Source: a phage
Direction: 5' to 3' (one strand)
Sequence record: EF517092.1
DNA: 565 nt
Positions 1 through 565 of this stretch are shown one piece after another. The position numbers and the translations under genes are program-made. Every line of letters begins with the position of its first letter. Within the stretch, counting starts at the first letter, position 1. The notes under the pieces were generated by a model. It was given only the letters and a program-made list of their open reading frames with translations. It was not told the origin of the DNA and ran no database searches.

Positions 1-441
1 GTTCCGGCTGCTGACCGTGTGTTCTACTGTGACCCAGATAGCTATTCTGCGATTCTGGCAGCACTGATGCCGAACGCAGCAAACTACGCTGCTCTGATTG
101 ACCCTGAGAAAGGTTCTATCCACAACGTTATGGGCTTTGAGGTTGTAGAAGTTCCGCACCTCACCGCTGGTGGTGCTGGTACCGCTCGTGAGGGCACTAC
201 TGGTCAGAAGCACGTCTTCCCTGCCAATAAAGGTGAGGGTAATGTCAAGGTTGCTAAGGACAACGTTATCGGCCTGTTCATGCACCGCTCTGCGGTAGGT
301 ACTGTTAAACTGCGTGACTTGGCTTTGGAGCGCGCTCGCCGTGCTAATTTCCAAGCGGACCAGATTATCGCTAAGTACGCAATGGGCCACGGTGGTCTTC
401 GTCCAGAAGCTGCTGGTGCAGTGGTTTTCAAAGTGAAGTAA
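1..441 (+). CDS. 10A: Major capsid protein 10A, C-terminal part (5'-partial; the gene starts upstream of the window). Frame +1 is open from base 1 to TAA at 439..441.
   Basis: Frame +1 has no stop from base 1 and translates VPAADRVFYCDPDSYSAILAALMPNAANYAALIDPEKGS...GHGGLRPEAAGAVVFKVK*. This matches my recollection of the C-terminal region of T7 major capsid protein gp10A. The ORF track start at 19 is an internal GTG (Val) codon, not the real start. Codon choice (GGT, GCT, CGT, CTG, AAC) fits a highly expressed gene. Confidence 0.9.
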   Translation, partial: VPAADRVFYCDPDSYSAILAALMPNAANYAALIDPEKGSIHNVMGFEVVEVPHLTAGGAGTAREGTTGQKHVFPANKGEGNVKVAKDNVIGLFMHRSAVGTVKLRDLALERARRANFQADQIIAKYAMGHGGLRPEAAGAVVFKVK

Positions 442-565
442 TGCTGGGGGTGACCTCAACGGTCGCTGCTAGTTCCGAAGAGGCGAGTGTTACTTCAACA
501 GAAGAAACCTTAACGCCAGCACAGAAGGCCACACGCACCCGTGCTGCTAACAAAGCTCGAAAGGA
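1..565 (+). CDS. 10B: Minor capsid protein 10B, made by programmed -1 ribosomal frameshift: join(1..429, 429..565). Partial at both ends; the stop lies beyond the window.
   Basis: After the heptamer at 423..429 the -1 frame (codons from 429: CAA AGT GAA GTA ATG CTG ...) has no stop to the window end. It translates QSEVMLGVTSTVAASSEEASVTSTEETLTPAQKATRTRAANKARK, which matches my recollection of the T7 gp10B-specific tail. In T7, 10B is about 53 residues longer than 10A, so roughly 10 more codons plus the stop are expected just past base 565. Confidence 0.8.
423..429 (+). other. Slippery heptamer G GTT TTC (programmed -1 frameshift site), positioned so that GTT and TTC are zero-frame codons
   Basis: GGTTTTC sits at 423..429 with zero-frame codons GTT (424..426) and TTC (427..429). 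The zero-frame stop TAA is 10 nt downstream and the -1 frame is open beyond it. This is the heptamer reported for T7 gene 10 frameshifting. Confidence 0.8.
434..497 (+). other. Candidate RNA stem-loop 3' of the slippery site: long-range stem 434..445 paired with 486..497, enclosing a small hairpin at 449..467
   Basis: Paired by hand: 434-445 (TGAAGTAATGCT) with 486-497 (AGTGTTACTTCA) gives 12 bp, 10 Watson-Crick and 2 G-U (442:489, 443:488). Inner hairpin: GACC 452..455 pairs with GGTC 461..464 around loop TCAAC, extendable by 451:465 (G-U), 450:466 and 449:467 (G-U). The spacer from the heptamer end (429) to the stem start (434) is 4 nt. No folding energy was computed. Confidence 0.3.

Follow-up and report, generated by a model that had tools for sequence, protein, structure and literature searches.

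The stretch of DNA analyzed here, called the window below, is 565 nt long (EF517092.1). Judged by its sequence, it covers the 3′ portion of gene 10, which encodes the major capsid protein of phage T7, in a slightly diverged T7 variant. In a Megablast search of 50,697 phage records, the top-scoring phage was T7, with V01146 at 97.5% and LC730325 at 97.7% identity, both over the full 565 nt and free of gaps. A sequence-only reading of the window made beforehand had asked for an alignment to the T7 genome. This alignment turned out to be gap-free and colinear over all 565 nt, with 97.5% identity to positions 23564–24128 of V01146. Gene 10A of V01146 ends at the same TAA as is found in the window, and gene 10B is annotated there as a joined two-piece CDS that crosses the shift site and continues to a stop in the −1 frame, followed by the Tphi terminator. 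The features of the window are listed in Table 1.

Table 1. Features of the 565-nt window, including the elements of the predicted RNA structure.
Feature	Position	Strand	Description
Gene 10A, 3′ part	1..441	+	T7 gp10A codons 200–345 and TAA; 97.5% DNA identity to V01146
Slippery heptamer G GTT TTC	423..429	+	P-site GUU 424–426 (Val341); A-site UUC 427–429 (Phe342)
10B-specific coding, −1 frame	429..565	+	45 codons; runs past the window end
Spacer AAA GTG AAG	430..438	+	Three zero-frame codons from shift site to stop; start of the predicted 3′ helix
Predicted Y-shaped RNA stem-loop	434..497	+	Candidate local frameshift stimulator; encloses the stop; begins 4–5 nt after the heptamer
Stem-loop, base helix	434–442 with 489–497	+	Predicted; contains TAA
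Stem-loop, second helix	443–447 with 469–473	+	Predicted
Stem-loop, inner hairpin	449–455 with 461–467	+	Predicted; loop UCAAC
Stem-loop, small hairpin	475–476/482–483	+	Predicted
10A stop TAA	439..441	+	Within the base helix of the predicted stem-loop
ATG of TAATG	441..443	+	−1 frame; overlaps the 10A stop; Met5 of the extension; often mis-annotated as a separate "10B" start
Block of suppressed synonymous variation	450..482	+	Within the 10B extension; overlaps the inner hairpin

The capsid gene and its substitutions

The zero frame of the window, with codons starting at 1, 4 and so on, is open from the first base to the 10A stop; the ORF was listed as 19..441. Its product matched residues 200–344 of the T7 10A chain 2xvr_A in the PDB (E 5e-91), with further matches to 3j7v and others, and it also matched phrog_267, the major head protein. 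The host ORF is that of the T7-like (HK97-fold) major capsid protein gp10A, which in the window differs from the T7 protein by R240H and E345K.

The window and V01146 differ at 14 positions, and every one of these differences is G-to-A or C-to-T. When polarized with 16 relatives, the difference at 525 was found to be a peculiarity of V01146 and the 13 others to be derived in the window, which carries these GC-to-AT transitions and no other change in 565 nt (2.3%). One of them, G436A, falls in the spacer between heptamer and stop, where it gives rise to E345K at the C-terminus of 10A and to a change from Gly to Glu in 10B. The heptamer is free of all 14 differences. A sequence identical to the window was not found in the phage collection (best match 97.7%), in IMG/VR or in the JGI metagenomes.

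The substitution spectrum matches that of an alkylating mutagen such as nitrosoguanidine. With nitrosoguanidine, hundreds of mutations have been introduced into T7 (Bull et al., 2003, and Springman et al., 2010, both as cited in PMC8923235). We hypothesize that the window may come from such a mutagenized T7 lineage.

The slippery heptamer and the 10B reading frame

GGTTTTC occurs only once in the window, on the + strand. The zero-frame codons at the site are GCA GTG (421–423) GTT TTC AAA GTG AAG TAA, and the heptamer lies in zero-frame register with a gap of nine bases, or three codons, to the stop. The first T of TAA is found 10 nt after the last heptamer base, the distance that the sequence-only reading had given. 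The heptamer also appeared somewhere in 17 of 200 shuffles of the window, and its presence is not improbable when taken alone. The sole other candidate in the zone where the −1 frame is open is A AUG GGC at 381, which is not a known shifty sequence. GGCTTTG (321) and TAATTTC (345) were created by the substitutions of the window, and the −1 frame is closed at both. No convincing Shine-Dalgarno (SD) stimulator was seen upstream of the heptamer.

Upon a −1 slip, re-pairing in the A-site is complete (UUC to UUU). In the P-site, X XX of the X XXY YYZ motif is represented by G GU and not by three identical bases, and the move from GUU to GGU leaves a central mismatch. The same departure, which the earlier reading had pointed out, is stated in PMC5009743, where G_GU is listed as a recognized relaxed class of X XXY YYZ. 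The heptamer works like a tandem-slippage site and is not a strict member of the motif, as was known already for T7. The shift site of T7 gene 10 has been named GGTTTTC, or G_GU U_UU_C (PMC5009743; PMC1635266). The site is real and already known, the textbook case of recoding that it had been taken for.

The −1 frame is stop-free from 375 through the end of the window, and after 441 neither of the other two + strand frames is open. Read from C429 to the window end it encodes the 45-codon peptide QSEVMLGVTSTVAASSEEASVTSTEETLTPAQKATRTRAANKARK, in agreement with the sequence-only reading, which had counted at least 45 open codons and had given the junction as ...AVVF-QSEVML.... In T7 the −1 stop follows 11 codons further on, and the 10B CDS ends 34 nt past the window end. 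A stop-free run of 45 codons was seen in 12.5% of shuffles of the segment and is not remarkable alone. Inside T7 10A, the longest −1 open run is 23 codons, as compared to 75 at the position of the shift site.

The −1 peptide is identical to the annotated T7 10B tail at 40 of 45 positions (...LTPAQxAARTRAANKARK...), leaving five amino-acid changes in the 45 codons present, and it matched phrog_12582, a PHROG head-protein family, with E 2.1e-21. A homology search had been suggested as the test that could overturn the 10B assignment; instead, the −1 translation has clear 10B counterparts in T7, in phrog_12582 and in relatives. The proposed single-gene arrangement likewise holds, as V01146 annotates both 10A and 10B across the site. 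The case stands above chance because the heptamer and the −1 ORF combine with homology and conservation.

To this we can add the pattern of variation. Across 16 natural relatives from Teseptimavirus, variation affected 9/42, 8/42 and 22/41 sites at codon positions 1, 2 and 3 of the −1 frame, respectively. Such a bias toward third positions indicates a translated peptide under purifying selection. The constraint on the 10B tail is clearly weaker than that on 10A, with 5 non-synonymous and 2 synonymous changes in the lineage of the window versus 2 and 6 for 10A.

We conclude with high confidence that the heptamer is the programmed −1 ribosomal frameshift site of T7 gene 10 (10A/10B), here in a T7 variant. 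The conclusion draws on the gene identity, the heptamer register, the intact −1 ORF, the 10B homology, the coding-type conservation and the subfamily-wide arrangement found in this analysis; the shift at the heptamer, its efficiency and its dependence on the distal Tphi element are taken from the literature on T7. The majority of ribosomes would read GUU-UUC-AAA-GUG-AAG and terminate at TAA, giving the major capsid protein 10A. A minority would slip one base back with tRNA-Val on GUU and tRNA-Phe on UUC. tRNA-Phe would then re-pair perfectly on UUU, and tRNA-Val imperfectly on GGU, where pairing holds at positions 1 and 3 but fails in the middle. CAA (Gln) would be read next in the −1 frame, leading via ...AVVF-QSEVMLGV... 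to the C-terminally extended minor capsid protein 10B, which would join capsid assembly with its tail on the surface. The stem-loop predicted downstream may contribute by holding the ribosome back at the heptamer. In wild-type T7, ∼10% of ribosomes shift (PMC1635266), and 10B makes up ∼5–10% of the capsid protein (PMC8923235). It is a documented virion component of ∼41–42 kDa (PMC1635266; PMC8923235). Frameshifting is probably retained in the T7 variant of the window, and its efficiency could differ from that of T7, with substitutions at 436, 453 and 474 in the spacer and stem-loop region.

The overlap of the 10A stop with an ATG in the sequence TAATG is a classic coupling arrangement, and it brings up a different origin of the −1-frame product: ribosomes terminate at TAA and reinitiate, or initiate independently, at the ATG, so that the extension is made from a separate small gene as a free peptide of ∼52 aa. 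This is how the ORF has been entered in the GenBank records of ESh6, C5 and Pila, in the last case together with a proposed ribosome binding site. The sequence-only reading had expected ORF callers to report nothing beyond the 10A stop, and it is indeed as a separate ORF at TAATG that these records contain the extension. ORF calls of this sort are the basis of phrog_12582, whose profile begins at Met. TAATG is also retained in 16 of 17 Teseptimavirus sequences, but UAAUG is also paired in the predicted base helix, which explains its conservation equally well. Against a separate gene, the ATG is missing in the Vi06, K30, K1F, KP32-type and Berlinvirus-type loci, all of which still have the heptamer together with a long −1 extension. 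In these phages the −1 frame is also open over 64 nt upstream of the stop, through the heptamer. In the window, the purine tract preceding the ATG is GAAG at a distance of only 2 nt, which makes a poor SD. Finally, both its annotation and the literature present T7 10B as a fusion that exceeds 10A in size (PMC5009743; PMC1635266), and in phage Kvp1 the larger band was identified by mass spectrometry as gp10 with the −1 C-terminus (PMC2579914). We consider a separate gene very improbable.

Conservation of the site in related phages

For comparison we used 80 related loci obtained from a scan of IMG/VR with the 10A C-terminus. NGTTTTC/A was found in phase near the 10A stop in 73 of these, as GGTTTTC in 67 loci, AGTTTTC in four, CGTTTTC in one and GGTTTTA in one. 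In five T3-like loci the corresponding position is taken by C CCA AAG. The two remaining loci have neither site; one of them is without an extension and the other has ACA AAG. A −1 extension of 38–100 codons follows in 72 of the 73 heptamer-bearing loci. The lone exception is the Yep-phi type, in which a TAG nonsense change ends the extension after 16 codons. The extensions are of different kinds, namely the T7 type with LTPxQKAARTRAANKA, a domain of 91–93 aa in the KP32 type and Ig-like domains in the T3 type.

At the codon level the heptamer stands out little. GTT is used at the heptamer in 46 of 50 representatives (92%), as compared to 40–94% at other conserved Val codons, and TTC is near-universal at other Phe codons as well. 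Because the codon bias of the capsid gene is strong, a synonymous test on the heptamer codons is weakly informative, and heptamer conservation at this level is only weakly distinctive by itself.

It could accordingly be argued that the heptamer merely encodes Val-Phe, that chance accounts for the open −1 frame and that the extension is a tolerated accident without function. Its codon choice is not clearly more constrained than that of other Val and Phe codons, shuffled sequence yields an open frame of this length often enough, the extension has taken up relatively more non-synonymous changes than 10A in the lineage of the window, and the Yep-phi type has lost most of it. This is met by the extensions of at least 38 codons in all other heptamer-bearing loci, which span several genera, and by their content, as many share the LTPxQKAARTRAANKA motif or carry whole extra domains of 91–100 aa. 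The third-position bias in the −1 frame points to selection on the peptide, phages without GUUUUC carry another slippery heptamer at the equivalent place, and the virion contains 10B. The comparative data largely refute a functionless accident, which we regard as extremely unlikely.

Another rival explanation places the shift in the RNA and not on the ribosome. T7 RNA polymerase might slip on the T run, giving some mRNAs that lack one U and have the extension in frame, and the protein junction would be identical. However, the T run consists of just four residues, and for polymerases to slip productively a homopolymer has to be much longer, typically 7–9 residues or more. Both the heptamer register and 3′ structure are conserved in relatives, which are features of ribosomal slippage, and the T3-like phages have a tRNA-Lys slippery site, C CCA AAG, instead. 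Products of this kind are known to arise by transcriptional slippage as well, a subject of the review PMC5009743, but the T7 site is classed there as ribosomal. We give this explanation almost no credence.

How many tRNAs take part in the ribosomal shift is less clear-cut. Site and product would be the same if tRNA-Phe slipped singly on U UUC and the re-pairing of tRNA-Val were irrelevant. In four loci the first heptamer base is A and in one it is C, with long extensions kept. With either base tRNA-Val would have one matching position after the slip. As such phages exist, P-site re-pairing is not strictly needed. Even with G there is the central P-site mismatch, which makes the site intermediate between hexanucleotide and heptanucleotide cases (PMC5009743), and the Kvp1 site has been described simply as TTTTCA (PMC2579914). 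On the other hand, G is found at the first heptamer position in 68 of the 73 loci, although the preceding GTG or CTG codons favor G anyway, and the T7 site is handled as a heptanucleotide case in PMC5009743. We find a single-tRNA slip unlikely but worth serious consideration, and retain tandem slippage on the heptamer as the working description.

Downstream structure and relation to known sites

When the native heptamer-to-stop segment of T7 was followed by foreign 3′ DNA, shifting was <1% (PMC1635266), as compared to ∼10% in the wild type. Therefore, the native 3′ sequence makes a difference of about ten-fold. T7 shifting involves a CCCC of the Tphi terminator, >200 nt 3′ of the site, by a mechanism that "remains to be explained" (PMC5009743). 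Tphi begins ∼80 nt past the window end, which places the reported CCCC stimulator outside the window; the terminator core is conserved in relatives. The GGGGG at 446–450 was considered as a pairing partner for the terminator CCCC. In close relatives this G-run is variable (GGGAG, GGAAG, AAGGG, AGGAG), and the pairing is unsupported because the terminator is invariant while the G-run varies and nothing covaries. For 16 Teseptimavirus sequences folded jointly with RNAalifold over the heptamer–Tphi interval, there was no long-range helix with the terminator and no double-sided covariation.

Within the window, a Y-shaped stem-loop is predicted directly downstream of the heptamer. Its minimum free energy is −26.4 kcal/mol with a z-score of −3.10, and only one of 200 dinucleotide shuffles was as stable. 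The T7 counterpart has −25.8 kcal/mol and a z-score of −2.28 over 71 nt, or −1.4 over 85 nt; taken alone, the post-heptamer segment of T7 is only moderately structured. G436A and G453A of the window each convert a G.U pair of the stem-loop to A-U. In 17 Teseptimavirus sequences, 98.5% of the pair cells are standard, and seven pairs vary on one side via G.U intermediates. No double compensatory change was found in these 17 sequences, and the shuffle control was not significant. Searching Rfam gave no family match; the sole hit was a chance miRNA with E 0.9.

The predicted stem-loop coincides with the strongest synonymous-site conservation of the window. Among natural Teseptimavirus relatives, one of 11 third positions is variable in the conserved block (Table 1), versus 118 of 186 overall, and the ten 11-codon intervals with the lowest synonymous variation in the 565 nt all lie within 444–503. 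In other genera of the Studiervirinae the post-heptamer sequence is unrelated and again unusually structured, with stem-loops of analogous form after the GUUUUC site. For 14 lineage representatives the mean z-score of the post-heptamer segments was −2.21, as compared to −0.29 in 266 control intervals taken from these loci (Mann-Whitney p 1.7e-6, with the 14 lineages not fully independent). Real covariation was seen only in the KP32 type, where 26 sequences share an 18-bp hairpin starting ∼20 nt downstream of the heptamer. Two adjacent pairs of this hairpin are compensatory (AU in 13 and GC in 10 sequences; CG in 15 and UA in 8), a covariation reached by none of 500 shuffles. No unusual 3′ structure was seen in the K30-type loci and locus L080, and no significant 3′ structure was predicted in the T3-type loci and locus L090. 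The T3-type phages, which are without such a stem-loop, have the intrinsically shiftier C CCA AAG.

From these comparisons we infer that the 434–497 stem-loop is a plausible local stimulator. It is possible, though we put this forward tentatively, that the 3′ dependence of T7 gene 10 shifting stems in part from this local element. The element is unmentioned in the review and the later citing papers that we consulted, and it may have been examined in earlier work.

The closest known system is T7 gene 10 itself (Dunn and Studier, 1983; Condron, Atkins and Gesteland, 1991). The window represents this very locus, with identical heptamer, register and stop distance, and is set apart from it by the derived substitutions described above. 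In gene 10 of T3 and phiYeO3-12, ribosomes likewise shift to −1 when only a few codons are left to the capsid stop, giving a C-terminally extended minor protein. Here the shift takes place at Lys codons (PMC2579914), in a C CCA AAG (tRNA-Lys) site, and the Ig-like extension is ∼85–93 aa. The Kluyvera phage Kvp1 resembles T7 in shifting to −1 at a poly-U/Phe site (TTTTCA), for which there is mass-spectrometric proof of 10B (PMC2579914). Kvp1 is nevertheless a separate phage whose extension differs in sequence, and it is not among the loci analyzed here by name.

Outside of phages, the Escherichia coli dnaX gene offers a bacterial −1 tandem-slippage site with a close 3′ RNA structure (cassette in PMC1635266), and it serves as the mechanistic model for the role that 434–497 might have. 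In a module of the dnaX or IS-element type, a stable 3′ structure backed by covariation or mutagenesis would be expected to start ∼5–9 nt after the heptamer; the stem-loop predicted in the window starts at 4–5 nt and has one-sided compatible changes within Teseptimavirus. In contrast to the window, dnaX has a perfect A AAA AAG heptamer, a defined upstream SD stimulator, an efficiency of ∼50% and a shifted product that is shorter. The G_GU departure from XXX in the P-site is shared with the G_GUU_UUU-type sites of cardioviruses (EMCV) and luteoviruses (PMC5009743). These sites are read by eukaryotic ribosomes and have other stimulators; only in the class of heptamer are they alike.

For annotation, the site matters because 10B is invisible to ORF callers and is missing, or mis-entered as a separate gene, in many T7-like genomes. 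Recognition of the heptamer corrects the annotation of 10B, the protein whose tail is the attachment point in T7 phage display. The analysis also touches on the source of the 3′ stimulation in T7, which the 2016 review lists as unexplained (PMC5009743). The comparative signal around 434–497 offers a testable hypothesis for this stimulation.

Conservation and structure 3′ of the shift site

Among natural Teseptimavirus relatives, synonymous variation was more strongly suppressed at 444–503 than anywhere else in the window. The lowest point was found at 450–482, where 1 of 11 third positions was variable versus 63% overall. The conserved stretch at 444–503 overlaps the predicted stem-loop at 434–497, which lies just 3′ of the GGTTTTC shift site and is a candidate local stimulator of frameshifting.

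Features of the window and of related phage loci (L-numbers) are collected in the table. The KP32-type loci carry a hairpin ∼20 nt 3′ of their GGTTTTC site. Two adjacent pairs of this hairpin show true compensatory changes (A-U/G-C and C-G/U-A), and as these force changes in the encoded extension, its amino-acid replacements are coupled, V/T/A with P/S. The T3-like loci have Ig-like extensions of 84–93 codons, and structure prediction 3′ of the site in these loci and in L090 gave nothing significant.

Features of the window and of related phage loci
Feature	Position	Locus	Remark
Differences from T7 V01146 (14)	45, 111, 122, 309, 325, 348, 402, 436, 453, 474, 525, 531, 542, 557	window	
In-phase pseudo-slippery heptamer G GCT TTG	321–327	window	created by C325T
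In-phase pseudo-slippery heptamer T AAT TTC	345–351	window	created by C348T
ORF of 41 aa	428–553	window, minus strand	opposite 10B extension
18-bp hairpin	1249–1291 of each locus	L050 and 25 other KP32-type loci	alignment A4, columns 27–69
C CCA AAG (canonical)	about 1228–1236	L030, L032, L034, L036, L038 (T3-like)	in place of GUUUUC, equivalent position
ACA AAG	about 1224–1232	L090	Ig-like extension of 86 codons
10B tail as separate small ORF	1138–1296	L003, L004, L005	ESh6, C5, Pila
10B tail as separate small ORF	1368–1619	L010	KP32 isolate 196

Substitutions and other reading frames in the window

All differences between the window and T7 are G-to-A or C-to-T, and when polarised with 16 relatives the derived state was on the window side at 13 of the 14. 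This exclusively GC-to-AT spectrum, at a density of 2.3% on a T7 backbone, suggests that the sequence originated in a chemically mutagenised laboratory lineage (treated with nitrosoguanidine, for example) rather than in a natural isolate. Searches of the phage collection, IMG/VR and the JGI metagenomes gave no identical sequence.

Two of the substitutions create pseudo-slippery heptamers. The −1 frame is closed at both, so any slip there would yield only a truncated protein. One reverse frame of the window is free of stops after 441. The minus-strand ORF most probably just mirrors the coding frame, as antisense frames usually do, and no evidence for a function of it was found.

Variation in the heptamer and the 10B extension

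The first base of the heptamer is A in L018, L028, L071 and L080 (A GTT TTC) and C in L025 (C GTT TTC), and long extensions are retained in all five. Thus, re-pairing of tRNA-Val in the P-site seems dispensable. The last base is A in Vi06 (L027; G GTT TTA), which also retains a long extension, and UUA therefore seems able to replace UUC in the A site.

The frameshifted 10B fusion is systematically mis-annotated in deposited T7-like genomes. The tail is entered as a separate small ORF in ESh6, C5, Pila and KP32 isolate 196, and is left without any annotation in Yep-phi and K1F.

The extension of Yep-phi (L008/L052) has 16 codons versus 42–45 in its sister phages. It is shortened because a G-to-T change about 50 nt past the 10A stop (GAAGTTGAG to GAAGTTTAG) creates a TAG codon. 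Yep-phi has naturally lost most of the 10B tail, which fits with 10B being dispensable.
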